Shown piece by piece: positions 16,857 to 50,021 of a stretch of 64,000 bases of DNA (positions are counted from its first letter, which is position 1; each line of letters starts with the position of its first letter). Source of the DNA: Candidatus Magasanikbacteria bacterium CG1_02_41_34 (GTDB lineage: Bacteria; Patescibacteriota; Patescibacteriia; Magasanikbacterales; UBA922); the NCBI GenBank assembly GCA_001871445.1, contig MNVD01000011.1:29382-93381 (forward strand), given 5' to 3'. A program made the position numbers and the translations under genes. The notes under the pieces are model-generated. The model ran no database searches. It had not been told where the DNA came from and was given only the letters and a program-made list of their open reading frames with translations.

Positions 16857-17645
16857 ATGCCAAAAATAAGTGTTCTATTATGCGTGTATAACGGTGATGA
16901 CTATGTACGCGGTGCTCTTGATAGTATTCTTTCTCAGACGTATAGTGATTTTGAGTGTGTTATTATTGATGACGCTTCCTCAGACACAACACCACACATA
17001 CTACGTGAGTATGCATCAAAAGATAATAGGATACATATACATACAAATGATAAAAATATGGGACTCACAGCATCTCTCCAAGATGGGCTGTCATATTGCA
17101 ATGGAAAGTATATAGCAAGAATGGATGTCGATGATATTGCAAGACGTGATAGGTTCGAAAAGCAATATGCATTTATGGAAGAACATCCTGACGTGGCGTT
17201 ATGTGGTTCCTTTGCAACTGTTATCGATGAAAAAGAAAGTACTATTGGAAAAAAGATATTTCCGACATCCTCAGTAGATATAAAAAAAAGACTTTTATTT
17301 AACAATCAGTTTGTTCACTCTACTCTTTTTTTTATAAAAGAAAAAATAGTAGACATTGGAGGGTATGATGTTTTTTTCAAAAAAAGTCAGGATTATGATT
17401 TGGTATTCCGTGTTGGATCTGTATACACCGTTGCAAATATTCCTGAATATCTTGTATCATGGCGCTTGGGCTCTCGGAGCATTTCTTGGCAGAGTAGGGG
17501 ACAAGAAATGTATGCGCTTCGGGCACGATGGAACGCAATTACAAGATATGGATATCCAAAAATCAATGGAATATACCACATTGTGGTACGAGCAATTTGG
17601 TTGTGTGTACCACTTTCGTTAAAAAGAAAGCGATATGTTCGTTAG
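16857..17645 (+). CDS. GT2-family glycosyltransferase
   Basis: 'ISVLLCVYNGDDYVRGALDSILSQTYSDFECVIIDDASSDTT', followed by a DxD-type motif, 'ARMDVDD'. Confidence 0.8.
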   Translation: MPKISVLLCVYNGDDYVRGALDSILSQTYSDFECVIIDDASSDTTPHILREYASKDNRIHIHTNDKNMGLTASLQDGLSYCNGKYIARMDVDDIARRDRFEKQYAFMEEHPDVALCGSFATVIDEKESTIGKKIFPTSSVDIKKRLLFNNQFVHSTLFFIKEKIVDIGGYDVFFKKSQDYDLVFRVGSVYTVANIPEYLVSWRLGSRSISWQSRGQEMYALRARWNAITRYGYPKINGIYHIVVRAIWLCVPLSLKRKRYVR

Positions 17646-18585
17646 TCTTATTATTCCCACAATTGTAGAAAGAAAAAATGAACTTGTTCGTTTATTGTCT
17701 TCCGTGGCATCTCAAAAAAAAATACCTGATGAAGTTATTATTGTTATGCAGGGATTTGGTAATAATTATGTATCAGCTGTAGCATCTATACAGCAATCGT
17801 TTCCAATGCTTACATTCGTATGTATTCAGAGTAGTATCCGCTCCCTTACAAAAGCTCGAAATGAGGGGGTGTGTAAAAGTAGGGGAGATATTATTGCATT
17901 TTCAGATGATGATATTATATTGGAGCCCAACTATATTGAAAAAATGATTCATTTTTTTGAAACATATCCCAAGGCACTTGGTGTTCAGGGACTTATTACA
18001 GACTTTGTAGAGGGACACACAAAAAAAATTGGGGGAAATTCATTTGTGTATGCCTGTTACAATGTGTTTGCCAAAATATTCTTATTGAATAATAGTAGTA
18101 CCAAAAACAAGTTATTACTATCTGGACGTAGTCAATATGCGACTCATGTAAAAACTGTGACACCCTGTGAATGGCTCAGTGGTATCGGAGCGTATAGAAA
18201 ATCTGTATTTACAGAGTTTACGTTTGACGAATCACTAGGTGGGTATGCACTCGGTGAGGACAAATTGTTTTCATATCCAATAAATCAAACATATCCAGGT
18301 GTATTGTATATTGACCCTTCAATTCGTTGCAAACATGTGTATGGAGAACAAGGTCGACCTAAAAATGAAGAATTGGTTCGTATGAAGGTGCAAAATATTC
18401 ACTATATCTGGAATAAACTGATGTCAGATCGTGGGTTTCTTGCCAAAATTGCGTTTTGGTGGGCGAATATAGGAGATTTCATCAGCGTGTTTTTTGCATC
18501 TATACTGCGTGTATATTCTTTTCGTTTTTTTTTGCTTCATGTGAGAGCCTATTTTGCACTTATTGGACATACGTATGATACCTAA
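17635..18585 (+). CDS. GT2-like glycosyltransferase
   Basis: 'VSLIIPTIVERKNELVRLLSSVASQ...DEVIIVMQG' and 'IAFSDDDIILEPNY'. It overlaps the previous gene by 11 nt. Confidence 0.6.
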   Translation: MFVSLIIPTIVERKNELVRLLSSVASQKKIPDEVIIVMQGFGNNYVSAVASIQQSFPMLTFVCIQSSIRSLTKARNEGVCKSRGDIIAFSDDDIILEPNYIEKMIHFFETYPKALGVQGLITDFVEGHTKKIGGNSFVYACYNVFAKIFLLNNSSTKNKLLLSGRSQYATHVKTVTPCEWLSGIGAYRKSVFTEFTFDESLGGYALGEDKLFSYPINQTYPGVLYIDPSIRCKHVYGEQGRPKNEELVRMKVQNIHYIWNKLMSDRGFLAKIAFWWANIGDFISVFFASILRVYSFRFFLLHVRAYFALIGHTYDT

Positions 18586-19717
18586 AAAACAAAATAAACA
18601 ATTAGTTCTTTTTTTCACGTATGGTGTATCCCTGGCTATTTGGGAAAAAGCAGGGACCCTGGGGCGTGATGCTCGTCTATATCAAGAATTACAAAAGCAT
18701 AATATAGACGTGCTATTTGTAACATACGGTAAAAGCAGAAGAGAAAAAGAATTGGCTGATAGATTGGGGATCTCTATTTTTTATAACAAGTGGCATCTTC
18801 CAACATTCTTATACTATGTGTTTCTTCCGGTATTGTTACTATTTCAATCTTACAAAAATATAGGTTGGATTAAATCCCATCAGTATATAGGTGTTTTTCC
18901 TGCATATGTATATGCAAGATTGAAAAAAGTCTCATATGTCGCTCGCGGAGGCTATCTTCCTACCTATTTTTTTGCAAAAGAAAAAAGATATAGTCTTCGG
19001 CGTTGGCTGAAATATATCTTTGTGAGTATTGACGAATGGATAGTGGTCAAGAAGGCAACTGTAATTTGTCTTCCAAGCAAAGAGGAAGAAGAGTATTTAC
19101 AGAGGAAATATACGACATGTTGTCCCAACATTGTCTATCAACCAAACTGGGTTGATACTGATACTTTTTTTCCTCTACCTCTTGCAAATAAAAAGAAAGA
19201 TATCCTTTTTGTTGGTCGTTTGGAATCTCAAAAAAGACCACTGCTTTTTTTGGATGCATATAAAAAAATAGGGAAGGGAGTAAGCGGAACGCTTGTGGGA
19301 ACAGGCTCTCTGGCAAGCACCGTATCGGATATTATTGCAGACAATGATCTTTCTCTTCATTTTTTACATAATCGATTGCCGAATAATGATTTGATTCCTA
19401 TTTATCAATCGCATAAAGTATATGTGCTTACTTCTTCCTATGAGGGAGGGTCTGCAAAAACTGTATTAGAAGCGATGGCATGTGGTGTTCCTGTTGTTGT
19501 TACAAATGGATTTGGTCTTGCTGCCACGGTTACTGATGGATATGATGGATTTGTCTGTCCGCCAGATCCTGACATCTTGGCAAAAAAAATTGACCTGCTC
19601 CTCACGAATGAAAGTGTATATACTCGTATGAGTGAGCATGCTCGGTCTACAAGTATACAAAAATTTAGTATGCAGGCCGTTTTGAAAAATGAACTTGCAT
19701 GGTTACACAATTATTGA
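18575..19717 (+). CDS. GT4-family glycosyltransferase
   Basis: C-terminal motif 'EGGSAKTVLEAMACGVPVVVTNGFGLAATVTDGYDGFV'. The ATG at 18575 is preferred over the TTG at 18554. It overlaps the upstream gene by 11 nt. Confidence 0.7.
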   Translation: MIPKKQNKQLVLFFTYGVSLAIWEKAGTLGRDARLYQELQKHNIDVLFVTYGKSRREKELADRLGISIFYNKWHLPTFLYYVFLPVLLLFQSYKNIGWIKSHQYIGVFPAYVYARLKKVSYVARGGYLPTYFFAKEKRYSLRRWLKYIFVSIDEWIVVKKATVICLPSKEEEEYLQRKYTTCCPNIVYQPNWVDTDTFFPLPLANKKKDILFVGRLESQKRPLLFLDAYKKIGKGVSGTLVGTGSLASTVSDIIADNDLSLHFLHNRLPNNDLIPIYQSHKVYVLTSSYEGGSAKTVLEAMACGVPVVVTNGFGLAATVTDGYDGFVCPPDPDILAKKIDLLLTNESVYTRMSEHARSTSIQKFSMQAVLKNELAWLHNY

Positions 19718-19754: not shown

Positions 19755-20777
19755 ATGAAAAAAGCACTTATTACAGGTATTACCGGTCAAGATGGCTCTT
19801 ATCTTGCTGATTTTCTTTTGGAGAAGGGATACGAAGTACATGGTATTATCCGTCGTTCGAGTAGTTTCAATACTGAACGAATTGACCATATATACAAAGA
19901 TCCTCATGAAAAAGGTGTGAAGATGTTTTTGCATTATGGAGATTTGGCAGACGCGAGTAATATCGAACGTATTTTGAAGAAAATCAAGCCAGATGAAGTA
20001 TATAATCTTGGAGCACAAAGTCATGTTCGTGTAAGTTTTGATATCCCTGCCTATACTGGAGATGTTGTCGGGCTAGGGACACTGCGATTACTTGAGGCAA
20101 TTAGAAATTCAGGTATTGATACAAAATTTTATCAAGCGTCTAGTTCTGAAATGTTTGGAAAAGTTCAGGAAACTCCACAAAAAGAAACAACGCCATTTTA
20201 TCCACGTTCACCATATGGATGTGCAAAAGTTTTTGCCTATTGGACGACGATAAATTATCGTGAGAGTTATGGAATGTTCGCATGTAATGGAATTCTTTTT
20301 AATCATGAATCACCTCGACGTGGAGGAACATTTGTTACAAAAAAGATTGTAGACGGTCTCATACACATAAAAGAAGGAAAACAAGACACCCTCTTTTTAG
20401 GGAACCTTGATGCAAAACGTGACTGGGGATACGCAAAAGAGTATGTAGAAGCCATGTGGCTTATGTTACAACAAGATACTCCTGACGATTTTGTCATAGC
20501 CACAGGAGAGACACATAGTCCACGTGAGTTTGTAGAAGAAGCCGCAGGATTGCTGGGTTTTGATATTGAATGGAGAGGAGATGGACTCAAAGAAAAAGGT
20601 ATTGATAAAAATAGTGGAAAGACGATTATTGAAATTGATCCAAAATATTTTCGTCCAGCTGAAGTAGATTTACTTATTGGGGACGGGACAAAAGCAAAGA
20701 ATATGCTCAATTGGGAACCAAAAGTGAAGTTTAAAGAGTTGGTTAAAATTATGGTGGAGGAAGGAATCGGGAAATAG
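19755..20777 (+). CDS. gmd: GDP-mannose 4,6-dehydratase
   Basis: '[47 protein letters not shown]'. Also '[10 protein letters not shown]' (the YxxxK motif) and 'NHESPRRG'. Confidence 0.9.
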
Positions 20778-20783
20778 TTATAT

Positions 20784-21698
20784 ATGAGAGAAGTAGAAAC
20801 AGAATTAATACCAGTCCAGGAAGCTCTTGAACGGTTTCGGGGAGAAATACAAGAAACTCATTCTGTATCTTTTCAAATTATGGAGATCGGCGGTATCCAC
20901 CCAGATAAAGGAAATGAACCATTTTTTGATCCATATACTCAGCAAGAAAGTACAGAAGACTTTAGTAATATTGGGAAACATTGCATAGCCGTCGGATATT
21001 GTGCAGATAAAATAGCTGAAAAGCTTTTGGAAAAAAAAGCGTTGACTCCAGAAGATTTTCATACTATTGTTGCTAGGGCGCTGGTTCATGATGTGATGCG
21101 TCGTCTCGTCGCTTGCGAAAGGAGAACAAAACAATCATTTGAAGAATGGGAAATACATAATGAAGATGATGTTGCACTTCATGAATTGTTTGAAAATTTT
21201 TCAGAAGAGGATGCACCCGGGAAAGACATGATTAATTATTTGGGAGTAGCTGGACGTGAAACAGGGCACATGAGTCTAAAAGAATTTGTTACGCTTGACC
21301 CTGAAGGAAAGCCTATACTCAAACCAGACAAAACACTTGTTGACATAATTGTACATGTGGCAGATGATATGACAGCGTCACCAAAACCTGGAGTTTCTGA
21401 AGAAACGAAATTTGTAGCAATTGAAGAACGAATGAGATTGGGGAATTTTCCCGAAAGACACCCACACTTATTTAGATCTGGTTTTGGATTTGACGCAGAC
21501 AATCATCCTGTCTTAGTGGATGATGTACATGATCAGTTAGTAATACAAGGATTGAAACAAGTAAAGTCTTATAAAGAGTGGCAAATATTGGTGTTTACTT
21601 TTTGTACTGATCGATTATCCAATATAATTGATCCACATTCATCATCTTCTTCACGTGAACATATAAAAAAAATTGTGAATAGTGGATTACTTACATAA
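20784..21698 (+). CDS. HD-domain (metal-dependent phosphohydrolase-like) protein inserted between gmd and fcl
   Basis: H...HD signature: 'HCIAVGYCADKIAEKL...ARALVHDVMRRL'. There are no other recognisable motifs. The function is unknown. Confidence 0.4.
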   Translation: MREVETELIPVQEALERFRGEIQETHSVSFQIMEIGGIHPDKGNEPFFDPYTQQESTEDFSNIGKHCIAVGYCADKIAEKLLEKKALTPEDFHTIVARALVHDVMRRLVACERRTKQSFEEWEIHNEDDVALHELFENFSEEDAPGKDMINYLGVAGRETGHMSLKEFVTLDPEGKPILKPDKTLVDIIVHVADDMTASPKPGVSEETKFVAIEERMRLGNFPERHPHLFRSGFGFDADNHPVLVDDVHDQLVIQGLKQVKSYKEWQILVFTFCTDRLSNIIDPHSSSSSREHIKKIVNSGLLT

Positions 21699-21704
21699 AT
21701 TACT

Positions 21705-22640
21705 ATGAACAAAGACTCGAAAATATATGTAGCAGGCCATAACGGAATGGTTGGTTCTGCAATTGTAAGAAAATTACAAGCAGAAGGGTATACCAATTTT
21801 GTTTTTCGGACGAGCAGGGAGCTTGATTTGCGTGATCAAAAAGCCACAGCAGATTTTTTTGCAATAGAAAAACCAGAATATGTTTTTTTGGCTGCTGCAA
21901 AAGTAGGCGGAATACTTGCAAACAAGGAACAAAAAGGTGAGTATTTTTATGATAACGCAATGATTGAGTTGAATGTTATTCACAACGCATATAAAAGTGG
22001 GGTAAAGAAATTATTTTTCTTAGGGAGTAGTTGTATTTATCCAAAATTTTCTGAACAACCGATTAAAGAAGAATATTTGATGACTGGGCACCTGGAACCC
22101 ACGAATGACGCATATGCGGTGGCGAAAATTGCAGGAATACAAATGTGCAAGGCGTATTACGAACAATATGGATTTCAATCAATTTCTGTCATGCCATGTA
22201 ATCTGTATGGTCCTGGAGACAATTTTGATCCAAAGACGTCGCATGTATTACCAGCGTTACTTCATAAAGTCATTGAAGCAAAAGAACATGGGGATAAAGA
22301 AATTGTGATGTGGGGGACAGGAAAGCCAAAACGAGAATTTTTGTATGTTGATGATGTTGCGAGCGCCTGTGTTTTTCTTATGAATAGTGATGTTGAAAAT
22401 GATATATTTAATGTTGGTATGGGAGATGACATCGCTATCAAGGATCTTCTTTCATTAATTTGTGAGATAGTTGGATTTGAAGGTGAGATTACGCACGACT
22501 TGGAGAAGCCCGATGGGACCCCACGAAAGTTGTTGGATGTAGGCAAGTTGCACGATCTTGGGTGGAAGCATGAAATTGAGCTGAGAGAAGGAATTGAAAA
22601 ATTGTATGCTTGGTATACAGAGCATAGAGATAACAAATAA
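21705..22640 (+). CDS. fcl: GDP-L-fucose synthase (GDP-4-keto-6-deoxy-D-mannose 3,5-epimerase/4-reductase)
   Basis: 'KIYVAGHNGMVGSAIVRKLQAEGYTNFVF', 'YAVAKIAGIQMCKAY', 'PCNLYGPGDNF'. Confidence 0.88.
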   Translation: MNKDSKIYVAGHNGMVGSAIVRKLQAEGYTNFVFRTSRELDLRDQKATADFFAIEKPEYVFLAAAKVGGILANKEQKGEYFYDNAMIELNVIHNAYKSGVKKLFFLGSSCIYPKFSEQPIKEEYLMTGHLEPTNDAYAVAKIAGIQMCKAYYEQYGFQSISVMPCNLYGPGDNFDPKTSHVLPALLHKVIEAKEHGDKEIVMWGTGKPKREFLYVDDVASACVFLMNSDVENDIFNVGMGDDIAIKDLLSLICEIVGFEGEITHDLEKPDGTPRKLLDVGKLHDLGWKHEIELREGIEKLYAWYTEHRDNK

Positions 22641-22644
22641 TAGT

Positions 22645-23613
22645 ATGAAAAAAGCATTGGTATTTGGTATTTGTGGACAAGATGCGGCGTATATGTCGGA
22701 GTTGTTACTTGAAAAGGGGTATGAAGTTTACGGAATTGGAAGATCCGTTACTCATGAAAGGTTATGGCGCTTAGATGAGCTTGGTATAACTGAAAAAATT
22801 AATATTTCCAGTGGAGATATCACTGATGCTTCTTATTTAGTTCAATTATTTTCTGATATACAGCCAGATGAGTGCTACAATTTTGCAGCAATTTCATTTA
22901 TAGGACAATCATGGAAGACAGCCGAGACCACGTTGCATGTGAATACTACTGGTGTATTACACATGTTGGAGGCAATAAAGACGGTTTCTAAACATACACG
23001 TCTGTATCAAGCTGGCAGTTCAGAGATATTTGGTCGTCCAGATACAAACATTCAAGATGAAACTACTCTTAGTAATCCATGCAATCCGTATGGTGCTTCA
23101 AAACTTGCTGCATATAATTTTTTGCATATTTATAGAGAGGCGTATGGTATTTTTGCATCAAATGCATATTGTTATAATCATGAATCTCCTTTGCGTGGTA
23201 TCGAGTATATAACACGAAAAATTACTGATGGTGTTGCGCGTATTTCTCTTGGAATGGCAAAAGAGCTTCGGCTTGGCAATATTGAATCATCGAGAGATTG
23301 GGGACATGCAAGAGATTATGTTCAAGCCATGTGGTTGATGCTCCAGCAAGATAAACCAGATGATTATGTTCTTGCAACAGGTCAGACACATAGTATAAAA
23401 GATTTGCTTACCATTGCGTTTGCTCATGCAGGAGTAGACAATTGGGAAAAATATGTTGTTGAGGATGAAAAATTCTATAGACCATTAGAACCCCATACAT
23501 TGTGTGGAAACAATGCAAAAGCAAAAGAAAAATTGCGCTGGGAACCTTCTACTTCATTTGAGACTTTGGTAGGGGAGATGGTTACAGCAGACATAAAAAG
23601 GCTCAAACGGTAA
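22645..23613 (+). CDS. Second GDP-mannose 4,6-dehydratase-family paralog (GMD-like or Rmd-like SDR)
   Basis: '[34 protein letters not shown]', 'YGASKLAAYN', 'NHESPLRG'. The ATG at 22645 lies just after the fcl stop. The ORF-track start at 22594 overlaps fcl. Confidence 0.7.
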   Translation: MKKALVFGICGQDAAYMSELLLEKGYEVYGIGRSVTHERLWRLDELGITEKINISSGDITDASYLVQLFSDIQPDECYNFAAISFIGQSWKTAETTLHVNTTGVLHMLEAIKTVSKHTRLYQAGSSEIFGRPDTNIQDETTLSNPCNPYGASKLAAYNFLHIYREAYGIFASNAYCYNHESPLRGIEYITRKITDGVARISLGMAKELRLGNIESSRDWGHARDYVQAMWLMLQQDKPDDYVLATGQTHSIKDLLTIAFAHAGVDNWEKYVVEDEKFYRPLEPHTLCGNNAKAKEKLRWEPSTSFETLVGEMVTADIKRLKR

Positions 23614-23615: not shown

Positions 23616-24677
23616 ATGTTTAGAAAAATTCAAAAAGGTCTCGTAGTTTTAAAAAATAACGTATGGAATCCAAATAAGCTTATTTTTATTTCAGAGCCTA
23701 TCAATTGGGTTATAGAAGAAATTTGTTTTGAACTCATTAACAAAATAAATAAGAAGTATTCAATAAAATCAAACATAAGTTACTCACCAATTTTTTTGAA
23801 AAATAAAATCTTGCATTTTTCAAGTATTGCCACACTAGTAAAAAGGAATGGCCTCGTACATTTTGATACATCAAACAAATCTGTTCTCAGCTGGTATCAT
23901 ATTTTGGAAAATGATCAGAAAATTTCCTTTATCCCGGAATTGAATAAGAGGATTGATTTTGTGCACACAGCATGTCGTACAACACAGCAAGATTTGATTG
24001 GGCATGGTTTTGATGAAAAAAAAGTAATTTTAATTCCAGAAGGAATCAAACTAGAAAATTTTAGAGTTTTTTCTGAAAAACAGAAAATTAAAGTTAAAGA
24101 AGAATTGCAGTTACCCAAAAATAAGATTATTATTGGTTCATTTCAAAAAGATGGACATGGGTGGAAAAATGGTTTGGAACCAAAAGAAGAGAAGGGGCCT
24201 GATGTTTTTTGTGATGTTGTAGAAAAATTATCAGAACAATTTGATATACATGTGTTGCTTACGGGGCCTGCCAGGGGGTATGTGAAAAACCGATTAGAAA
24301 AAGCTGGAATATCATATACACATGAATATGTAAAAGAGTATACTGACATTGTGAAATATTATAATGCGCTAGATGTATATATCATAGGCTCTAGAGTAGA
24401 GGGTGGACCGAAAGCATTGTTAGAATCTTGGGCATGTGGTGTCCCGCTTGTCTCTACGAAAGTTGGTATGTCTGCAGATCTTATACGAAATGGTGAAAAT
24501 GGTTTTTTGGCAGAAGTGGAAGATATTGATGATATAACCGAAAAAGTCATACATATTTTGAATAATAACGAGAGTAAAGAAAAGTGTATACGTGGTGGTT
24601 TAACAGATGTACAAACGTATAGTTGGGACAACATTTCACAAATGTATTTTGAACGCATGTATAAAAAATTAATATGA
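23616..24677 (+). CDS. GT4-family glycosyltransferase
   Basis: 'EGGPKALLESWACGVPLVSTKVGMSADLIRNGENGFL'. Confidence 0.75.
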   Translation: MFRKIQKGLVVLKNNVWNPNKLIFISEPINWVIEEICFELINKINKKYSIKSNISYSPIFLKNKILHFSSIATLVKRNGLVHFDTSNKSVLSWYHILENDQKISFIPELNKRIDFVHTACRTTQQDLIGHGFDEKKVILIPEGIKLENFRVFSEKQKIKVKEELQLPKNKIIIGSFQKDGHGWKNGLEPKEEKGPDVFCDVVEKLSEQFDIHVLLTGPARGYVKNRLEKAGISYTHEYVKEYTDIVKYYNALDVYIIGSRVEGGPKALLESWACGVPLVSTKVGMSADLIRNGENGFLAEVEDIDDITEKVIHILNNNESKEKCIRGGLTDVQTYSWDNISQMYFERMYKKLI

Positions 24678-25747
24678 AAGTGAGTTTGAGTATAAAAAAA
24701 GTAGAAGGCCCTTTTGGTGGAGGTGCTATATTTGCCAACACGGTTTCCGAATATTTGGTGAGTAGAGGAATTGAAGTGGTACATACGTTAGATGATGCTG
24801 ATATTGACGTCGTGTTACACGTGAATCCGTTTCCTTTTATAATGAAATCGTCATCATATTCTTTTTTTGATGCATATATATATAAATTAAAGCATCCTAA
24901 AACAGTTATTATACAGGGGATTCATGAGTGTGACGAAAGAAAAGGCACACATTATATGAATAAACTTTTGGTAAATGCCTGTAATCATGCTGATTTTGTT
25001 ATTTTTGTGGCAAGTTGGCTGAAGCCATTATTAGAAAAAAATGGTCTTGATAAAAAGAAACCTTCACAAGTTATTTTGCACGGAGTTCCCGAAGAGATTT
25101 TTAATACAAAAGACAAAAACTTTTGGGACAAACATAGTAAAATGAAAATAGTCACACATCATTGGGGTGGCCAATTTTTGAAAGGACATGATTTTTATCA
25201 GCGATTAGACAAATTGTTAGCGAGTAGTGAGTTTGGTGATAAATTTGAATTTACGTATATTGGCAATTATCCAAGCAATCTAGAATATAAAAATACAACG
25301 TTGATTGCCCCGATATCTGGAAGTGTACTTGGCGAAGAATTGAAGAATCATGATGTCTATATCACGGGATCTCGTAATGAGCCTGCAGGGATGCATCACG
25401 TAGAAGGTGCACTATGTGGTCTGCCTTTACTCTATATCGATTCAGGTGCACTTAAGGAATATTGTGACGGATATGGTATTGAGTTTAATGAGGATAATTT
25501 TGAAGAAAAGATCTTGGAAATGTATCGTGATTACGATATATATTTAGAAAAAGTGAAGAAATATGACAGAGTGGCTTCAAAAATGGGACAGGAATATTAT
25601 GAGTTGCTGACAGAATTATATAAAAATAGAGACCAATATGCGTTTAAAAATAAAAAAAATATTGGAAAGATTTTTTTTATTAGTATATATTCCTTTTTTT
25701 ATGACGGAATTTGGAGACTTAGAAGAATATTGAAATTGCTCAAGTAA
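24674..25747 (+). CDS. GT-B-fold glycosyltransferase-like protein
   Basis: Gly-rich N-terminal loop 'EGPFGGGAIFAN'. C-terminal motif 'EPAGMHHVEGALCGLPLLYIDSGALKEY'. It overlaps the previous gene by 4 nt. Confidence 0.5.
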   Translation: MKVSLSIKKVEGPFGGGAIFANTVSEYLVSRGIEVVHTLDDADIDVVLHVNPFPFIMKSSSYSFFDAYIYKLKHPKTVIIQGIHECDERKGTHYMNKLLVNACNHADFVIFVASWLKPLLEKNGLDKKKPSQVILHGVPEEIFNTKDKNFWDKHSKMKIVTHHWGGQFLKGHDFYQRLDKLLASSEFGDKFEFTYIGNYPSNLEYKNTTLIAPISGSVLGEELKNHDVYITGSRNEPAGMHHVEGALCGLPLLYIDSGALKEYCDGYGIEFNEDNFEEKILEMYRDYDIYLEKVKKYDRVASKMGQEYYELLTELYKNRDQYAFKNKKNIGKIFFISIYSFFYDGIWRLRRILKLLK

Positions 25748-25756
25748 TAGTAATAT

Positions 25757-37995: not shown

Positions 37996-38099
37996 GAAAT
38001 GTGTTTTATTGTAGAAAAGAGTATAGTGGTAGATTCTTTTTTAATTGGAAATTGAAATTGGAAAATGAATTTGGTTTTTTTAAGCAGTAGCAATTTAGT

Positions 38100-43179: not shown

Positions 43180-43196
43180 AATCTATCAATTCATTT

Positions 43197-45320
43197 ATGA
43201 TAAAATTTCAAAATATAATGAAAAAAATTAGACATATACGGGATCCCAGAATCATTTTTTTGATAGTAACTGTCTTTTTTTGTTTTGAATATTTTATTTT
43301 GGGTCCTTTTTCTTATGCACGCATTGGAGACAATCTAGATAGTTTTGTAATAAGAGCTGTAGTATATTGGCAGAGTATGTTTCGCGATGGAATGATGAGT
43401 TATTGGCTTCCTTATTTTACTGGTGGCATGGACAGACTATCAAATATGTCTTCGTTTGGTGAAATAGGTAATTTATTATATATTTTTCCTGCATGGTTTG
43501 CCTCGGCAATTGTTATTTTATCTTCAGTTTTTTTTGGAGGGTATTATACTTTTAAGATTGGTCATGAAATTTTGGATTTGGATAAAAAAGCTAGTCTTAT
43601 CGCTGGTATTTTATTTTCATCGTTTTTTGTCATTCAGGATCTCAAACCGTTTATGTTAGGGATCGTGGTGTTGCCATTTACTTTATTTTTTTTAGAAAAG
43701 ATATTTTTTAACAAAACTTTTTCTTTATTTAAGAAAAGTATACTTTTCCTCATATTAGGAATCGTGTTTTCGTCTTTTTCGTCTATTACATTAACCATGC
43801 CTTTTGTGGCAATTGCAATAGTAGTTTGGTTTACTCTAGTTAGAAAACAAAAAAATTTAATTTTTTATTTATTACTTTCCATTTTTTTTCTTTTGTCTTT
43901 TCTATTGAAATCTCAAGAGATTTGGAGTTTATTTATTAACACACCATTATCTCGCCGTAGTGCTGAATCATTGTATTATAAAGCAGACCTAAGTCAATTA
44001 TTATCTGAGCTTAGAAATACTTTTAAGACTAACAGCATCGCTCTTCTCATAGTTTTTTTTGGATTTTTTCTTTCGAAAAAAGATAAATTATTTATTATAT
44101 TAATGACTATCTCTCTAGTGTTTATGTTATTACCTACATTTTTTCCAATATTATCAGGTAGTAATTTTGGAAGAGTGTTAGGTCCTTTTCGTAATTTTGG
44201 TTTTAAGTGTTTATATCTTGTTTCTCCTTTATTTTTTTCTTTGGCGGCTGGATACGTATTTAATTATTTTAAAGATACAAGAGCTAGTGTGTTTCTACAA
44301 AAGACCAATAAAGATTACTTATTTTACATACAGAATATCCTAATTTCGATTACTTTGGTTCTGGTTGTTTTTGTAAATTTTTCTATAAAAACGAATCATT
44401 TTTATGTCTGGTTGAAAACTGGTGGATATTATGCAAATACTCACAGTCCTGATGTGTCAGCGTTGGTTGATAGAGAAAAAAATTCTTTACCTTATCGCGT
44501 TGCAATCATAAGTCCTAAATCTTATAAAAGTCTTTATCCCTTTTTATCAAATTTTTATGGATTGGAAACTTCTGATGCTTCCACCGACGTGATGCCACAA
44601 AGAATTGATGAATTTTTTAGGATTATGTCAAATGCAGACACTCGGACATCCCAGTATTTTTTACCAGATGTTGATAGCCAAACAGCAAAGAAAATGATGA
44701 CAAATTTTGATTTGAATAATTTGGTCAATACATCACTTATGTCGTTATTCAATGTGAAATTTGTCTTGACTGACCATATCATCAATTCTGACGGTTTTGA
44801 ATTAATTCAGACTCCTAGCGTGAGTGAATGGAAATCATGGACAGACATGAAAGAATCGGAGAAAATTAAACTTAAATTGGAAGAAAATTTTTTTGGCAAA
44901 AAATTATTAGTGTATGAAAACAAAAATTCTTTTCCAAGATTTTTTTTGGCAAAAAAAGTGGAATTTTTTGATACAGATAATGATCTCTTGAATGCCTTAT
45001 CAGATGCTGATATAAAAAGATTGAGAGAAACTGTTTTTTTGTTAAAACAATACACTGACAAAATTCCTGAAATGAATGGTGTCGATACAGATGTTGATGT
45101 CATAGAATATTCAAATGATAAAATAAAATTGAAAGTTGAAACTGATGGACCATCTGTGTTAGTCATTAGTAATAATTTTACTCCTTTTTGGGAAGTCTAT
45201 GTGGATGGGGTAAAGAAAGAGATAATCCCAGCCTACCATGCTTTAATGGCTGTATCGCTTGAGAGAAATAATAATGAAGTAGAATTAATCTATAAACCTC
45301 CATATGTAGTAAAATTATAG
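43197..45320 (+). CDS. Large polytopic membrane protein, likely a GT-C-fold glycosyltransferase (YfhO- or GtrC-like), with a C-terminal soluble domain
   Basis: 707 aa. There are about 12 TM helices in the first 400 aa or so, followed by a roughly 300-aa hydrophilic C-domain. It sits between a GtrB-like gene and a GtrA-like gene. No family-specific motif was confirmed. Confidence 0.45.
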   Translation: MIKFQNIMKKIRHIRDPRIIFLIVTVFFCFEYFILGPFSYARIGDNLDSFVIRAVVYWQSMFRDGMMSYWLPYFTGGMDRLSNMSSFGEIGNLLYIFPAWFASAIVILSSVFFGGYYTFKIGHEILDLDKKASLIAGILFSSFFVIQDLKPFMLGIVVLPFTLFFLEKIFFNKTFSLFKKSILFLILGIVFSSFSSITLTMPFVAIAIVVWFTLVRKQKNLIFYLLLSIFFLLSFLLKSQEIWSLFINTPLSRRSAESLYYKADLSQLLSELRNTFKTNSIALLIVFFGFFLSKKDKLFIILMTISLVFMLLPTFFPILSGSNFGRVLGPFRNFGFKCLYLVSPLFFSLAAGYVFNYFKDTRASVFLQKTNKDYLFYIQNILISITLVLVVFVNFSIKTNHFYVWLKTGGYYANTHSPDVSALVDREKNSLPYRVAIISPKSYKSLYPFLSNFYGLETSDASTDVMPQRIDEFFRIMSNADTRTSQYFLPDVDSQTAKKMMTNFDLNNLVNTSLMSLFNVKFVLTDHIINSDGFELIQTPSVSEWKSWTDMKESEKIKLKLEENFFGKKLLVYENKNSFPRFFLAKKVEFFDTDNDLLNALSDADIKRLRETVFLLKQYTDKIPEMNGVDTDVDVIEYSNDKIKLKVETDGPSVLVISNNFTPFWEVYVDGVKKEIIPAYHALMAVSLERNNNEVELIYKPPYVVKL

Positions 45321-45366
45321 TGTTCAATTTATTTATTCAAATAGGAGTTTTTAGTAATTATTACTA

Positions 45367-45777
45367 ATGATAAAACATATAATGAAAATTATCAGTCCTC
45401 AATTAATAAGATTTATATTCGTTGGAAGTGTAAATATGGTTTTGAGTTATAGTATTTTTTTGATATGTATTTATTTTTTTTATTTTCATTATACTTTAGC
45501 TCTTATCGTTGAATATTTTTTTGGTATTCTAAATAGTTATTTTTGGAATAGAAGATGGACTTTTAAGAGTGATGGTAATGTCAAGAAGGAAATTAGAAAA
45601 TTTATTTTTGTATATCTCGTGATGTTTGGTTTAAATTATGTATTACTTTCTATATTTATAGACTTGATTAATATGAGAGTTTTTTTTGCACAAATGGTAG
45701 CTATAATAATTATTACCCCCGTAACCTTTTTAGCTCATAAAATGTGGTCTTTTGTTAAGAAAGAAACACACAATTAA
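45367..45777 (+). CDS. GtrA-family small membrane protein (a polyprenyl-P-sugar flippase component)
   Basis: 136 aa with 4 TM helices. The N-terminus 'LIRFIFVGSVNMVLSYSIFLICIYFF' resembles the GtrA 'F..VG...t..d' start. Confidence 0.6.
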   Translation: MIKHIMKIISPQLIRFIFVGSVNMVLSYSIFLICIYFFYFHYTLALIVEYFFGILNSYFWNRRWTFKSDGNVKKEIRKFIFVYLVMFGLNYVLLSIFIDLINMRVFFAQMVAIIIITPVTFLAHKMWSFVKKETHN

Positions 45778-45781
45778 TTTT

Positions 45782-49091: not shown

Positions 49092-49103
49092 ATAGGAACA
49101 TAT

Positions 49104-50021
49104 ATGTCAACCTATCTCATCACTGGGGGCGCAGGCTTCATTGGAACAAATCTTACAAAGCAGTTATTGGAAGAAGGGCATACTGTTCGCATTATTGATA
49201 ATTATGCAGGAGGTAAAAAGGAAGAACGTATACAAGAAGGAGCAGAATATATAGAAGGAGATATACGTGACTTTGATATGCTCCTTCGTGTAATGGATGG
49301 AGTGGATGGTGTGTTTCACATGGCAGCACTGCCACGAGTAACATTTTCTGTTGAACATCCTTTGGAAACGCATGATGTAAATGTAAATGGTACCCTCAAT
49401 GTCTTTTTGGCGGCAAGAGATGCTGGAGTAAAAAAAGTAGTGTTTTCTTCATCCTCTTCTACATACGGTGATCTCCCAAAAGAAATGTATCCTGTCAAAG
49501 AAGAGGGTGTTGTCAAAATGCCTCTTGCACCATATGCACTGCATAAGTTCATAGGAGAACAATATGCACGTATTTTTTCTTCATTGTATGGTCTCAAAAC
49601 AGTCTCTCTCGTGTATTTCAATGTGTATGGTCCTTATGCTGATCCAAATGGAGCCTATGCGCTCGTGATCGCAAAATTTCTTCAACAAGTAAAAAATGGT
49701 GAGCCGATGACTATTTGTGGTGATGGAGAATATTATCGTGACTACACACATGTATCTGATATTGTACGAGCAAATATTCTTGCCATGACATCAGATACTG
49801 TGGGGAAAGGAGAGACTATCAATATTGGAAATGACAATCCGCATTCAGTCAATGACATTGTGAAGCTTATTGGTGGAGATTCTGTGAATATTGATCCACG
49901 TCCAGGAGACGTTAGGTTTACACAAGCAAACATCACAAAAGCAAAGCAACTCCTTGGGTGGAAGCCTACTGTTGAATTAGTAGATGGGATTGCAGAATTA
50001 AAAAAAGAATGGGAAGTGTAA
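49104..50021 (+). CDS. NAD-dependent nucleotide-sugar epimerase/dehydratase (SDR). It is probably a UDP-hexose or uronate 4-epimerase.
   Basis: 'YLITGGAGFIGTNLTKQLLEEGHTVRIIDN', 'YALHKF' (the YxxxK motif), '...SSSTYGD'. Confidence 0.8.
   Translation: MSTYLITGGAGFIGTNLTKQLLEEGHTVRIIDNYAGGKKEERIQEGAEYIEGDIRDFDMLLRVMDGVDGVFHMAALPRVTFSVEHPLETHDVNVNGTLNVFLAARDAGVKKVVFSSSSSTYGDLPKEMYPVKEEGVVKMPLAPYALHKFIGEQYARIFSSLYGLKTVSLVYFNVYGPYADPNGAYALVIAKFLQQVKNGEPMTICGDGEYYRDYTHVSDIVRANILAMTSDTVGKGETINIGNDNPHSVNDIVKLIGGDSVNIDPRPGDVRFTQANITKAKQLLGWKPTVELVDGIAELKKEWEV

Follow-up and report, generated by a model that had tools for sequence, protein, structure and literature searches.

Does the long run of glycan genes at 16857-50021 in a contig of Candidatus Magasanikbacteria CG1_02_41_34 form one super-operon for one long, heavily methylated glycan, as an earlier note proposed? 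The window, which is the whole 64,000-nt stretch of DNA analyzed here, encodes proteins identical to NCBI OIO20018-OIO20064 that are also encoded on groundwater contigs from Rifle and Crystal Geyser; the source organism is uncultivated. A gene inventory with Pfam and NCBIfam profiles agrees with the earlier description of an unusually large glycan-assembly locus rich in largely intact SAM methyltransferases (MTases). The cluster is real and of an essentially ordinary kind, a mosaic locus of very large size dedicated to a methylated sugar polymer of the cell surface, and it is notable mainly for its host, a groundwater member of the CPR with a tiny genome, of which the locus makes up ~4%.

Between 16857 and 50021, 32 plus-strand ORFs of at least 100 aa and an 81-aa HTH_17 gene give 33 genes, rather than the ~36 counted previously (a 55-aa ORF at 38959-39126 is a doubtful gene). 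The tight, co-directional packing was described correctly, with a median intergenic spacing of 9 nt, 24 of 32 gaps at or below 25 nt, six overlaps and a coding share of ~97%. Gaps above 60 nt measure 64 and 93 nt (flanking the HTH gene), 81, 144 and 338 nt, and what looks like a further gap of 104 nt after 37995 is occupied by the out-of-frame end of the frameshifted gene 37372. Since the whole window is ~90% plus strand with uniformly positive GC skew, co-directionality partly reflects leading-strand bias; promoter and terminator scans were at chance level. The limits of the block are arbitrary, because the genes at 5747-16846 and a divergent gene at 50340-51890 belong to the same lineage-conserved unit, and the complete locus spans 5.7-51.9 kb (46 kb). 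Comparison with homologous loci in relatives (L numbers) separated a conserved head and tail from a variable, low-GC middle at 23.6-47.7 kb. The block combines vertically inherited genes with exchanged low-GC cassettes, and given this mosaic make-up, a side-branch module and an internal conserved regulator gene, a single operon making a single long glycan is not supported.

The conserved head comprises:
5747-6361, + strand, ECF sigma factor (Pfam)
6372-7718, + strand, DUF5667 anti-sigma-like membrane protein (Pfam)
8053..11718, + strand, 1221-aa secreted protein (signal peptide) of S-layer-like composition, candidate glycan acceptor
11736-14099, + strand, Wzy_C-TPR protein 1, 787 aa, 12 TM (Pfam Wzy_C ~71 bits, TPR)
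14096-14752, + strand, small TPR protein (Pfam)
14759-16846, + strand, Wzy_C-TPR protein 2, 695 aa, 12 TM (Pfam Wzy_C ~71 bits, TPR)

The sigma factor, anti-sigma protein, giant secreted protein and two Wzy_C proteins were present in every Magasanikbacteria relative examined, with the sigma/anti-sigma pair in the identical position in L091, L093 and L094 and a separate small TPR protein in L093 and L094. The 695-aa protein has hundreds of orthologues of uniform length (44-51%) in Magasanikbacteria. The 1221-aa protein is acidic, rich in T (12.7%), S (10.1%), A (11.5%), V (11.1%) and G (9.6%) and poor in Cys (0.3%); it matched no Pfam domain and carries no recognizable S-layer or anchoring domain. 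It evolves fast while keeping its position (57, 38 and 28% identity in L094, L093 and L091), and in L089, another CPR genome, a 1150-aa counterpart adjoins a Wzy_C-TPR gene. The two Wzy_C-TPR proteins are candidates for the polymerase and for an O-oligosaccharyltransferase (O-OTase) or ligase. Known S-layer O-OTases are Wzy_C proteins that either carry TPRs at the C terminus or have a small TPR gene ahead of them, and the S-layer glycan O-OTases WsaB and WsfB share the Wzy_C/TPR make-up seen here, small upstream TPR protein included (PMC2943079).

Glycan assembly itself is represented by the following genes:
16857, 17635 and 18554 (16857..19717), + strand, conserved trio GT2, GT2, GT4 (Pfam, NCBIfam)
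23616 and 24674 (within 23616..26824), + strand, GT4 and weak GT-B (Pfam)
25757 (within 23616..26824), + strand, conserved 355-aa protein without family (synteny)
27228..28790, + strand, Wzx-type flippase, 520 aa, 14 TM (Pfam Polysacc_synt 34.8 bits, cut-off 28.2)
30228..31298, + strand, GT-B (Glyco_trans_1_2, Pfam 93.2 bits), partner of a two-domain MTase
33236..34285, + strand, probable GT-B, sub-threshold (Pfam Glycos_transf_1 22.4 bits, cut-off 26.4)
38100..38999, + strand, conserved GT2 (Pfam 80.5 bits)
45752-46612, + strand, GT2 (Pfam)
46614-47702, + strand, GT4 (Pfam)
50340..51890, - strand, polyprenyl glycosylphosphotransferase (PGT; Bac_transf), 516 aa, divergently encoded initiating enzyme (Pfam 212.9 bits; TIGR03025 363.8 bits, above the cut-off of 295.6)

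Five GT2 enzymes were found, within the earlier estimate of five to six (16857, 17635, 38100, 40854 and 45752), as was the reported Wzx. With five GT-B enzymes above threshold (18554, 23616, 24674 barely, 30228 and 46614), the claimed total of at least 12 glycosyltransferases is reached only if the sub-threshold 33236 and the single GT-C candidate, 43197 (DUF6044/YfhO), are counted. The trio at 16857-19717 has 40-55% orthologues in kept order in L094 and L091. The low-GC region begins with the genes at 23616-26824, whose orthologues lie in L094, L095 and L100; among them, 25757 matched neither a family nor a PDB entry, and AF2 modelling from its sequence alone failed (pLDDT 36). Against its counterparts in the close relatives L095 and L100 the flippase scores ~200 bits, a strong divergence of the kind expected of a cassette-specific flippase. 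The MTase adjacency of 30228 recurs in L089, and its orthologues in L007 and L009 are 52% identical; 33236 is conserved in L095, L098, L100 and L007, and 38100 in L092, L095, L097, L098 and L100. In L092, orthologues of 45752 and 46614 (52% and 49%) directly follow that of 38100, and a 45% PGT orthologue keeps position and orientation, followed by a subtilase.

Nucleotide-sugar enzymes, and two further proteins encoded among them (20784 and the NadE-like 32141), are as follows:
19755 (within 19755..23613), + strand, GDP-mannose 4,6-dehydratase (NCBIfam gmd 582 bits, cut-off 415)
20784 (within 19755..23613), + strand, 304-aa insert protein with a weak HD hint
21705 (within 19755..23613), + strand, GDP-L-fucose synthase (NCBIfam Fcl 469 bits, cut-off 500)
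22594 (within 19755..23613), + strand, second GMD paralogue (NCBIfam gmd 342 bits)
32141..33226, + strand, NadE-like PP-loop ATP pyrophosphatase, 361 aa (Pfam NAD_synthase 78.9 bits; TIGR00552 75.7 bits)
36061..37368, + strand, UDP-glucose 6-dehydrogenase-like nucleotide-sugar dehydrogenase (three Pfam domains; TIGR03026 337 bits)
47712-49091, + strand, second, UDP-glucose dehydrogenase-like nucleotide-sugar dehydrogenase (profile matches)
49104-50021, + strand, WbpP/WbgU-like C4-epimerase

The three GDP-sugar genes have 69-84% orthologues in relatives, and 20784 has none in those compared. As an RMD, 22594 scored only 127 bits versus 338 bits for its best PDB match, 1RPN, which makes it a second GMD. 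The predicted GDP-fucose, UDP-glucuronate and 3-amino-dideoxyhexose enzymes were all recovered; the xylose-type assignment did not survive, as 49104 reached 125 bits as a UDP-xylose synthase versus ~200 bits for WbpP/WbgU-type 4-epimerases. The first dehydrogenase has an orthologue in all relatives, and in the conserved tail (47712-50021) GC returns to 0.40, with L092 orthologues of 69% and 75% in kept order. The NadE-like 32141 passes a generic NadE domain model and could be simply an NAD synthetase; it scores far under the NadE equivalog cut-offs, its PDB NadE matches reach at most 60 bits, and its orthologues (59-76%; L092, L095, L097, L098 and L100) always lie within syntenic glycan loci beside the UDP-glucose dehydrogenase gene. 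We infer that 32141 serves in carboxylate adenylation and amidation in the glycan module.

The reported eight SAM-binding domains, three of them FkbM-type, were recovered in seven MTase genes, two in the side-branch module (41786 and 42553) and these five:
28794..30206, + strand, two-domain MTase, 470 aa, N-domain FkbM/Methyltransf_24-like, C-domain COMT/Erm-like class I (Pfam, profiles, structure model)
31337..32059, + strand, class I SAM MTase, 240 aa (Pfam Methyltransf_23 63 bits; motif I VLDVGCARG)
34282..35082, + strand, intact FkbM-family MTase, 266 aa (Pfam 72 bits over 1-172 of 173; TIGR01444 82 bits)
35227..36051, + strand, class I SAM MTase, 274 aa (Pfam Methyltransf_12/31/11 ~62 bits; motif I VMEIGCGLG)
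37372..38093, + strand, FkbM-like MTase pseudogene (frameshift)

The MTases have full-length Pfam matches, and all eight domains retain the glycine loop of motif I as well as the acidic residue that ends beta-2; one gene, 37372, is frameshifted. FkbM assignment is strong for 34282 and weak for the 28794 N-domain, with 37372 the third. The AF2 model of 28794 (pLDDT 85) supports two MTase-like domains, its best Foldseek matches being two-domain PMTs and COMT-like O-MTases; profile matches were to Erm, PIMT, KsgA and COMT, and E324, T325, G326, T327, G330, E347, D372 and D393 are invariant. This family is widespread, in a recurring order of flippase or ABC transporter, this MTase and a Glyco_trans_1_2 enzyme. 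Conserved motifs are present in 34282 (alignment A1), which overlaps the preceding GT gene (33236) by 4 nt and has 54-57% homologues in L092, L007 and L009, with none in the closest relative, L095. Conservation among the MTases of the locus is highest for 35227 (orthologues in L095, 581 bits; L100, 502 bits; L098, 269 bits), and 31337 has no orthologue in any relative examined. O-methylation of sugars by these enzymes is assumed. The MTase density, earlier called unusual, is high but not unique: syntenic loci of relatives hold from one to at least five MTases in their visible parts, and unrelated loci with shared MTase families two to three per 20 kb.

A small gene and a deletion scar lie at the breaks earlier placed at 26.8-27.2 and 39.0-39.3 kb:
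26889..27134, + strand, HTH_17 (MerR/excisionase-like) DNA-binding protein, 81 aa (Pfam HTH_17 48.6 bits)
38985..39214, no strand, deletion scar (nucleotide alignment with L095)

The first interval is no clear break, since it holds the conserved HTH gene, which is called in independent assemblies; in L094 an 80% orthologue immediately precedes Wzx. Ahead of the gene lies a promoter-like site (26835-26864), from a scan at chance level overall. The second is the scar of a deleted gene: the L095 alignment ends at 38985 and restarts at 39214, between which L095 carries a 1.7-kb, 576-aa gene (581 aa in L100), and an 18-aa C-terminal remnant persists at 39007-39060 (E 0.002). No repeats flank the scar. 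In 37372, the 207-aa ORF (37372-37995) loses the reading frame after about residue 181, with the C-terminal 60 codons in another frame to ~38093. Homologues (236-248 aa) match up to query residue 181, and beyond it their C-terminal parts match the other frame (P0378, 59% identity, 80 bits); an intact 239-aa orthologue in L095 is 76% and then 82% identical over the two frames. The site holds no homopolymer, and the frameshifted sequence is identical in at least four assemblies. With one MTase dead and one gene deleted, today's glycan may be less elaborate than the gene list implies.

Downstream of the scar lies a putative side-branch module:
39338-39763, + strand, FdtA-type 3,4-ketoisomerase (Pfam FdtA 144.6 bits)
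39765-40850, + strand, DegT-family aminotransferase (Pfam DegT 390.8 bits)
40854..41774, + strand, ArnC/GtrB/PgfS-like GT2, polyprenyl-phosphate sugar synthase (NCBIfam ArnC 155 bits, PgfS 152 bits, full-length)
41786-42529, + strand, class I SAM MTase (Pfam Methyltransf_11/25; motif I IFDAGCGTG)
42553-43179, + strand, class I SAM MTase (Pfam Methyltransf_11/25; motif I VLDLGCGTG)
43197..45320, + strand, YfhO/DUF6044-like polytopic membrane protein, 707 aa, candidate GT-C (Pfam DUF6044 38.3 bits, cut-off 27; YfhO 27.6 bits, just under the cut-off of 28.5)
45367..45777, + strand, GtrA-family small membrane protein, candidate flippase for a lipid-linked sugar (Pfam GtrA_DPMS_TM 87.7 bits)

All seven genes lack an orthologue in the L092 stretch, where the orthologues of 38100 and 45752 are adjacent, and 39338-45777 thus looks like a self-contained, lipid-linked module. 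L095 has orthologues of FdtA, the aminotransferase, the ArnC-like GT2 and MTase 41786, where its locus ends; in L097 a homologue of 43197 adjoins the 38100 orthologue. The ArnC-like enzyme has two C-terminal TM helices (217, 256), 43197 at least nine, and the GtrA protein four (GC 0.24), an architecture matching multi-component transmembrane glycosylation systems (PMC8035078). FdtA and the aminotransferase would yield an NDP-3-amino-3,6-dideoxyhexose; the window lacks RmlA and RmlB, which a dTDP-3-amino sugar would require. The two MTases (Pfam 56-76 bits; GC 0.27-0.29, the lowest of the locus) could act on nitrogen rather than oxygen, since they adjoin the 3-amino-sugar genes and no N-acyltransferase is present, but likeness to TylM1-type N,N-dimethyltransferases is just marginal (E 0.006-0.01) among otherwise generic class I matches in the PDB.

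Taken together, the PGT, Wzx, two 12-TM Wzy_C-TPR proteins, 11-12 glycosyltransferases and nucleotide-sugar enzymes incline us, by a modest degree, toward a Wzx/Wzy-type surface-glycan pathway, probably for an S-layer protein O-glycan, with 16857-50021 as its biosynthetic core. Its step order, the substrates of the MTases and NadE-like enzyme, the Wzy_C division of labor and the protein acceptor are all inferred. The phosphoglycosyltransferase would begin the repeat unit on polyprenyl phosphate and about ten cytoplasmic GT2 and GT-B enzymes would lengthen it, from donors made in situ (GDP-L-fucose or a 6-deoxyhexose; UDP-glucuronate and its C4 epimer). Soluble MTases would methylate sugars during assembly, the NadE-like enzyme would probably amidate a uronic acid, and Wzx would flip the unit. 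One Wzy_C-TPR protein may then polymerize and the other transfer the glycan to its acceptor, paralogue roles that are a guess because Wzy_C domains occur in polymerases and ligases as well as in O-OTases. The most likely acceptor is the 1221-aa protein, a candidate by composition and conserved adjacency, in 'slg'-type protein O-glycosylation. The three-component module would then decorate the exported glycan: the 3-amino-3,6-dideoxyhexose, possibly methylated by the two MTases, would be loaded on polyprenyl phosphate by the ArnC-like GT2, flipped by GtrA and attached outside the membrane by the YfhO-like GT-C. Known slg clusters share low GC, tight gene packing, FdtA-type sugars and O-methyl caps (PMC2943079), and Kuenenia has an S-layer O-glycan with extensive methylation (PMC5088730).

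Among the window ORFs scanned with Pfam, no Wzz/PCP, Wza, LCP or ABC-transporter gene turned up, which also speaks for the S-layer-type reading. The earlier comparison of the FkbM-type enzymes with WbdD does not fit, since the locus has no Wzm/Wzt ABC transporter; the WbdD methyltransferase domain is not known to be FkbM-type. Further envelope-glycan genes lie outside the reported range:
55314..58937, + strand, SDR epimerase/dehydratase, PpgS-like polyprenyl-P-HexNAc synthase (56355; NCBIfam PpgS 178.9 bits, under cut-off), DUF2304 protein (57041), 120-aa protein and GT4 (57762) (Pfam, NCBIfam)

The ORF listing of the reported block (16857-50021) holds 32 plus-strand ORFs of at least 100 aa; on identical contigs in public databases, an 81-aa gene is called in addition at 26889-27134, as is a 55-aa ORF that is doubtful. 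With one frameshifted gene repaired, the block comprises 33 genes, spaced by a median of 9 nt and overlapping in six cases, with about 97% coding sequence, so the minimal spacing described in the earlier note holds while its count of about 36 genes is too high. Five gaps exceed 60 nt (64, 93, 81, 144, and 338 nt). The first of two breaks that had been reported, at 26.8-27.2 kb, is occupied by the 81-aa gene, and the second, at 39.0-39.3 kb, is the 338-nt gap, a deletion scar. The 81-aa HTH_17 (MerR/excisionase-like) gene lies just 5′ of the Wzx flippase gene and is 80% conserved in L094, a syntenic locus of a relative; larger HTH_17 genes also flank the locus head in L093 and L094.

The unbroken plus-strand run begins at 5747 and includes 39 genes to 50021. 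About 90% of genes across the window lie on the plus strand, and the GC skew stays positive over its whole length, indicating that the co-directionality is partly leading-strand bias. The GC content is 0.40-0.41 in the flanks, 0.33 over 23.6-47.7 kb, and 0.24-0.30 at 41.8-45.8 kb. Scans for sigma-70 promoters and intrinsic terminators gave hits at the level of shuffled sequence, megablast of window positions 1-8000 against PLSDB gave no plasmid match, and the search for IS and repeat signatures around the 39.3-45.8 kb module returned only AT-rich chance matches. tRNA and Rfam scans of the window found only tRNA-Met and tRNA-Glu, at 62.2-62.5 kb. Of ten window proteins looked up, nine are 100% identical to NCBI entries in the range OIO20018-OIO20064 from Candidatus Magasanikbacteria bacterium CG1_02_41_34, a member of the CPR/Patescibacteria, on a contig of 101.6 kb. 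The proteins are also present in two sister MAGs and in Rifle and other groundwater contigs. Since relatives conserve both a head and a tail as a frame, the reported block can be placed as the interior of a larger locus of 46 kb that extends from 5.7 to 51.9 kb. Surface-protein genes lie around this locus at 25-4932 and 51800-55304 (GHL15/FG-GAP, DUF11-repeat, TSP3-repeat, and a 661-aa subtilase), and PilT and PBP2 genes lie downstream at 59.3-62.2 kb.

The Pfam and NCBIfam inventory showed the earlier gene list to be essentially right, with the exception of a "Xyl-type" enzyme.

Glycosyltransferases, nucleotide-sugar enzymes, and membrane components of the locus
16857, 17635, 38100, 40854, 45752, plus strand: five GT2 glycosyltransferases (Pfam/NCBIfam)
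18554, 23616, 24674 (barely), 30228, 46614, plus strand: five GT-B glycosyltransferases above threshold (Pfam/NCBIfam)
33236, plus strand: GT-B glycosyltransferase, sub-threshold (Pfam)
27228-28790, plus strand: Wzx flippase (Polysacc_synt 34.8 bits, cut-off 28.2; 14 predicted TM helices)
50340-51890, minus strand: initiating polyprenyl-phosphate glycosylphosphotransferase (Bac_transf 212.9 bits; TIGR03025 363.8, above the cut-off of 295.6)
19755-20777 and 21705, plus strand: GMD and GDP-fucose synthase (Pfam/NCBIfam)
22594-23613, plus strand: second GMD (PDB 1RPN 338 bits, RMD reductase 127 bits)
36061 and 47712, plus strand: two UDP-glucose-dehydrogenase-like (UGDH) enzymes (Pfam/NCBIfam)
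49104, plus strand: WbpP/WbgU-like 4-epimerase (WbgU/WbpP about 198-200 bits; top NCBIfam match a TviC-type 4-epimerase)
39338, 39765, and 45367, plus strand: FdtA, DegT aminotransferase, and GtrA (Pfam/NCBIfam)

The Wzx flippase and the GDP-Fuc and 3-amino-dideoxyhexose enzymes that had been predicted were thus all recovered, the last two as GMD with GDP-fucose synthase and as FdtA with the DegT aminotransferase. At least 12 glycosyltransferases had been claimed; ten GT2 and GT-B enzymes pass their thresholds, and 12 is reached by counting the sub-threshold 33236 and a candidate GT-C protein at 43197. The "Xyl-type" label did not survive comparison, as 49104 is closer to WbpP/WbgU than to UDP-xylose synthase (about 125 bits), an assignment now ruled out, and GDP-4-keto-6-deoxymannose reductase (RMD) was ruled out for 22594 on the scores listed. 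The two GMD paralogues are kept together in relatives, and in the further locus L007 the second is fused to a fucose-synthase-like enzyme (662 aa). A 304-aa ORF at 20784-21698, inserted between GMD and GDP-fucose synthase, occurs in none of the relatives compared, and its product gives only a weak HD-domain hint (E 0.003). Neither 20784 nor 25757 has a Pfam, NCBIfam, or PDB match, and a single-sequence AlphaFold model of 25757 reached a pLDDT of 36.

Judged by their domains, the initiating phosphoglycosyltransferase, cytoplasmic glycosyltransferases, Wzx, and Wzy_C proteins fit a Wzx/Wzy-type route, in which the cytoplasmic glycosyltransferases would use GDP-Fuc and UDP-GlcA or its epimer. The Wzy_C domain, common to polymerases, ligases, and O-oligosaccharyltransferases (O-OTases), scores about 71 bits in both 12-TM proteins.

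The head of the locus is conserved in the contexts of relatives, where tblastn recovered an ECF sigma factor, a DUF5667 anti-sigma factor, a secreted protein of 1220-1500 aa, Wzy_C, in some cases TPR, and Wzy_C in that order. A separate small TPR protein is present in the window, L093, and L094. Hundreds of Magasanikbacteria proteins, all of similar length, are orthologous to the 695-aa Wzy_C-TPR product of 14759, at 44-51% identity. The sigma/anti-sigma head (5747-16846) suggests envelope-stress control of surface glycosylation. The giant protein at 8053-11718 has a signal peptide, contains 23% Ser+Thr, and is Ala/Val/Gly-rich, acidic, and almost free of Cys; by tblastn against relatives, its position is fixed and its sequence fast-evolving. 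The giant proteins of five loci gave no Pfam domain at E up to 1, and no SLH or other known domain was found in 8053-11718.

Two O-OTases of Gram-positive S-layer glycosylation, WsaB and WsfB, belong to the Wzy_C proteins. A C-terminal TPR occurs in WsfB and PglL, the gene for a small TPR protein lies 5′ of wsaB, and the slg clusters are low in GC and tightly packed, with FdtA sugars and O-methyl caps (PMC2943079). By domain architecture, the candidate proteins of the window show the combination used to recognize O-OTases, Wzy_C with TPR or with a separate TPR protein (PMC2943079). The S-layer O-glycan of Kuenenia is extensively methylated (PMC5088730). Given these features and the traits of the giant protein, we favor, by analogy, an slg-type protein O-glycosylation system, with a wall- or lipid-linked polysaccharide as the main rival. 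Like the slg clusters of Geobacillus stearothermophilus NRS 2004/3a, Paenibacillus alvei, and Aneurinibacillus thermoaerophilus (PMC2943079), the locus places a candidate surface-protein gene beside the glycan genes, encodes an O-OTase candidate with Wzy_C and C-terminal TPR, a small TPR protein, and a Bac_transf initiator, and combines low GC and packed or overlapping ORFs with GDP-6-deoxyhexose and FdtA/FdtB sugars and predicted SAM-dependent O-methylation. Unlike them, it is two to three times larger and belongs to a CPR host, has Wzx where the best-studied slg case has Wzm/Wzt, carries two Wzy_C paralogues, seven methyltransferase genes in place of a single capping domain, and an added three-component module, and its surface protein is without a recognized S-layer domain.

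That last feature would also suit the rival product, a heteropolysaccharide that is free or anchored to wall or lipid (capsule, EPS, or secondary cell-wall polymer), for which one Wzy_C protein would polymerize and the other ligate, with the giant protein as unrelated cargo. The standard parts of Wzx/Wzy-dependent polysaccharide loci include Wzx, a Wzy_C protein, and a phosphoglycosyltransferase, such a route to the Bacillus anthracis secondary cell-wall polymer has been proposed, and three-component modules usually decorate wall polymers, e.g., teichoic acids and rhamnans (PMC8035078). We nevertheless consider this product possible but somewhat unlikely, as the window ORFs scanned with Pfam include no chain-length regulator (no Wzz, GNVR, or tyrosine-kinase domain), no Wza, and no LCP-family ligase, and it would leave unexplained why the giant protein is so strictly conserved together with two Wzy_C-TPR proteins, in Magasanikbacteria and in another CPR class. 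Shared with the E. coli/Salmonella rfb and S. pneumoniae cps loci are the phosphoglycosyltransferase, the glycosyltransferase series, Wzx, a Wzy_C-family membrane protein, embedded nucleotide-sugar genes, and a low-GC, horizontally shuffled, serotype-like middle between conserved flanks, while the window differs from them in being without Wzz/PCP, Wza/Wzc, CpsBCD, or a lipid A-core context, in having Wzy_C with TPR, and in a head of ECF sigma/anti-sigma and giant secreted protein. A classical LPS O-antigen locus with WaaL-type ligation to lipid A-core could be read from this rfb-like gene content and from the public annotation of the Wzy_C proteins as "O-antigen ligase family protein", but is very improbable, since the 64-kb window contains no lipid A, core, or Lpt gene. 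CPR/Patescibacteria are regarded as being without LPS biosynthesis and an outer membrane, which also counts against it. The Wzy_C domain is also common to polymerases and protein O-OTases (PMC2943079).

Within the block, the region 39338-45777 is a second, self-contained unit with all three hallmarks of multi-component transmembrane glycosylation systems, namely an ArnC-like GT2, a GtrA flippase, and a YfhO-like GT-C (PMC8035078). The 40854-41774 product matches ArnC (155 bits) and PgfS (152 bits) over its full length, in both cases below the equivalog cut-off, and has two C-terminal TM helices. GtrA (45367-45777; 4 TM) scores 87.7 bits for GtrA_DPMS_TM against a cut-off of 26.1, and the candidate GT-C (43197-45320; at least nine TM) scores 38.3 for DUF6044 (cut-off 27) and 27.6 for YfhO, just below 28.5. 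As in GtrA/GtrB/GtrV, CsbB/GtcA/YfhO, and ArnC/ArnE-F/ArnT (PMC8035078, PMC7389260), a membrane-anchored polyprenyl-P-sugar GT-A (40854), GtrA, and a polytopic protein (43197) are encoded together, and, as in the arn system, a DegT aminotransferase would supply an amino sugar. The module differs from these systems in its donor, for which the presence of FdtA predicts a 3-amino-3,6-dideoxyhexose, and in containing two SAM methyltransferases and no formyl- or acetyltransferase. As FdtA and the aminotransferase provide for donor synthesis and no N-acyltransferase accompanies them, N-methylation of the amino sugar is conceivable from the gene context. A second lipid-linked sugar module at 55314-58937 encodes a PpgS-like polyprenyl-P-HexNAc synthase (56355) and DUF2304, flanked by an SDR enzyme and a GT4. 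The pairing of PpgS with DUF2304 is known from the GalN modification of mycobacterial arabinogalactan.

The presence of two polyprenyl-P sugar synthases, 40854 and 56355, raises the alternative that several independent glycan systems (a fucose unit, a uronic-acid unit, the amino-sugar module, and the PpgS-like module) are merely co-located and share an orientation along the leading strand, with methyl groups spread over their products and no single long, heavily methylated polymer. Two GMDs, two UGDH-like genes, the internal conserved HTH gene, the 64-144 nt gaps, a mosaic of independently swapped cassettes, and the window-wide plus-strand and GC-skew bias would all agree with this. We think it unlikely, since the window contains a single Wzx and a single initiating phosphoglycosyltransferase, and in relatives the head and tail are conserved as a frame around a variable middle, which argues for one product of varying composition.

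Seven methyltransferase genes were found in the block by Pfam (28794, 31337, 34282, 35227, 37372, 41786, and 42553). The 470-aa product of 28794 has only a weak N-terminal FkbM/Methyltransf_24 match in Pfam, but a profile of 33 homologues matches Erm, PIMT, KsgA, and COMT over positions 300-399, and its AlphaFold model (pLDDT 85) has two Rossmann-like domains of seven strands each, with two-domain phosphoethanolamine N-methyltransferases and COMT/CCoAOMT-like O-methyltransferases as the top Foldseek matches. The family invariants E324, T325, G326, T327, G330, E347, D372, and D393 of the C-terminal domain are those that a SAM site would need. Because 28794 has two methyltransferase domains, the seven genes encode eight, three of them FkbM-like, in agreement with the number predicted. 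The FkbM assignment is clearest for 34282 (PF05050 72.1 bits over 1-172 of 173; TIGR01444 81.9 bits), is cut off by a frameshift in 37372 (32.9 and 42.3 bits), and is partial for the 28794 N-terminal domain (Pfam 24.3-26.2 bits, cut-off 22.7; TIGR01444 20.8, below 37.7). The FkbM profile found no solved relative in the PDB, and the matches from its scan of GTDB representatives did not include the window's own genome. All eight SAM domains keep the glycine loop of motif I and the acidic residue that ends beta-2, and six of the seven genes are intact, so the suspicion that most of these genes might be degenerate is not borne out.

None of the window methyltransferases is orthologous to a characterized enzyme. 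A TylM1/DesVI-type N,N-dimethyltransferase was rejected for 41786, which matches 3PFG and 6M8x only in the SAM-binding core (E 0.006-0.01, about 18-19 bits), and for 42553, which had no such match in the PDB search. Homologues of 28794, 460-530 aa in length, are frequent among cyanobacteria, Bacteroidota, Elusimicrobia, and CPR. This uncharacterized family (about 470-530 aa) lies directly 3′ of Wzx or Wzm/Wzt in the window (28794-31298), in another CPR genome (L089:8574-12468), and in a further locus (L090:7904-11431), and a Glyco_trans_1_2 glycosyltransferase follows the two-domain enzyme in the window and L089.

The exception among the seven genes is 37372, whose 207-aa ORF matches FkbM models only to about residue 180. 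In an exhaustive search, its nearest relatives are 236-248 aa long and homology ends at residue 181, their last 60 residues aligning to another frame as far as about 38093, just before the next gene. An intact 239-aa orthologue in L095, the locus of the closest relative, is 76% and then 82% identical across the two frames. A distant profile, of the 28794 family, had been negative or weak for this frameshift, which was resolved with the closer homologues and the L095 orthologue. The lesion is a fixed 1-nt deletion near 37905, with identical sequence in four or more independent assemblies that come from several samples, and since no homopolymer is present at the site, phase variation was rejected. 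As read from these alignments, 37372-38093 is a putative pseudogene or encodes a truncated product. At 38985-39214, 229 nt stand in place of a gene present in L095 (576 aa) and L100 (581 aa), leaving an 18-codon C-terminal piece at 39007-39060, and the 338-nt gap is thus a deletion scar; the lost gene is without a Pfam match.

The product of 32141-33226, publicly annotated as NAD+ synthase, passes the generic TIGR00552 model (75.7, cut-off 63.65) and scores 80.8 bits against the NF010587 equivalog cut-off of 255. Scores far below equivalog cut-offs speak against NH3-dependent NAD+ synthetase as its identity, and it has N- and C-terminal extensions of about 70 aa relative to PDB NadEs. Its orthologues always lie in glycan loci next to UGDH (L092:2676-3773, L095:9965-11083, L097:5519-6625, L098:2403-3566, and L100:9962-11068). 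From this constant place and the sub-equivalog score we infer that the enzyme may amidate a glycan carboxylate (uronic acid) and not synthesize NAD. This would parallel the AsnB-type enzymes that are found in a comparable place in L090 and L092.

The search for homologous loci separated a conserved head and tail and a recurring sub-module from variable middle cassettes and methyltransferases. Nucleotide and protein comparison of the window with L095, L097, L098, L100, and L092 showed that the middle varies, while the sub-module of NadE-like enzyme, GT-B 33236, methyltransferase 35227, UGDH 36061, and GT2 38100 recurs. Two relatives have a GT2-GT2-GT4-GMD-Fcl-GMD2 series after the head, L094 with the 81-aa HTH gene and Wzx in addition. 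The frame in GCA_964522405.1 ends as in the window (UGDH, epimerase, divergent Bac_transf, and subtilase), in a locus of about 64 kb with at least five methyltransferases in the visible 43 kb. Where the window has Wzx, 28794, 30228, and 31337, L095 instead has a different Wzx, a CotH-like protein of 873 aa, and another methyltransferase. The CotH-kinase-like protein (L095:6631-9252) lies in the cassette after Wzx in place of the two-domain methyltransferase and glycosyltransferase, a hint that the glycan may alternatively be modified by phosphorylation. The FkbM gene 34282 is absent from L095 and present in L092, L097, L098, and an unrelated Wzm/Wzt locus. From the FdtA-to-GtrA module, L095 has FdtA, the aminotransferase, the ArnC-like GT2, and methyltransferase 41786, where that locus ends, and the L092 stretch has no orthologue of any module gene.

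Given the earlier claim that the methylation density is unusual, methyltransferases were compared across loci. The visible parts of relatives contain at least four in L095, three in L098, one or two in L097, one plus an MBOAT in L100, and at least five in L091/L092, and unrelated loci anchored on the same families contain two or three per 20 kb. The seven genes in 14.4 kb of the window are the highest density among the loci compared, but stand on a continuum, with one to at least five in relatives. Heavily methylated glycans are known from mycobacterial MGLP, MMP, and GPLs, and the Rhizobium etli CE3 O-antigen contains methyl-fucoses, 3-O-methyl-6-deoxytalose, and methyl-esterified GlcA. The Kuenenia stuttgartiensis S-layer O-glycan (PMC5088730) and other methylated glycans likewise carry several methyls per glycan on deoxyhexoses or HexNAc; the window has multiple methyltransferases with fucose, 6-deoxyhexose, and uronic-acid genes, and differs in their families (FkbM, two-domain, and generic class I) and number. 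Literature searches on FkbM sugar methylation and the Rhizobium tri-O-methylfucose genes returned nothing usable.

A WbdD-like chain-terminator system, named in the earlier note as an example for FkbM-type enzymes, does not fit the Pfam results, as the block contains no ABC transporter or kinase domain. Homologues of 28794 directly after wzm-wzt in L090 and the closest 34282 homologue in a Wzm/Wzt(Wzt_C) locus make terminal capping plausible as an ancestral role. Unlike WbdD systems, the window has Wzx and is without an ABC transporter, a kinase domain, or a coiled-coil ruler, and a Wzx/Wzy pathway would not be expected to control chain length by capping. Overall, the observation of the gene block was confirmed and its interpretation is supported in part.

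All components belong to known families and the architecture is known; no new type of system is revealed. New are the host organism, the locus size in proportion to the genome, the head of sigma factor, surface protein, and dual Wzy_C, and two uncharacterized enzyme types in conserved synteny; a literature search found no publications on such loci in CPR. CPR genomes are about 1 Mb, and a life attached to other cells is assumed for these bacteria. In a related Magasanikbacteria, the chromosome measures 1.23 Mb, of which such a locus would make up about 4%; together with a middle reshuffled between close relatives, this points to heavy investment in the surface glycan, which is probably under diversifying selection. 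The putative acceptor protein, the two Wzy_C-TPR transferases, the NadE-like enzyme, and the two-domain methyltransferase family are candidates for first biochemical work on the CPR cell surface. A bolder proposal, which we hold to be a long shot, is that Magasanikbacteria and perhaps other CPR have an ECF-sigma-controlled S-layer-type glycoprotein system whose glycan is diversified mainly by swaps of methyltransferase, amidotransferase, and side-branch cassettes, with new chemistry from NadE-family uronic-acid amidation and a two-domain (FkbM-like and COMT-like) methyltransferase working with Glyco_trans_1_2, and with methylation as a strain-level surface code. If true, variable methylation would serve these episymbionts as a code in attaching to hosts or evading phages.

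Two of the contigs compared, CAZFTR010000002.1 (L091/L092, from GCA_964522405.1) and CAYPKD010000009.1 (L009), are titled "uncultured Gammaproteobacteria". The first carries a syntenic locus of the Magasanikbacteria type, with orthologues at 50% (Wzy_C-TPR) and 68% (NadE-like), the second carries several orthologues of window genes, and both labels look wrong.
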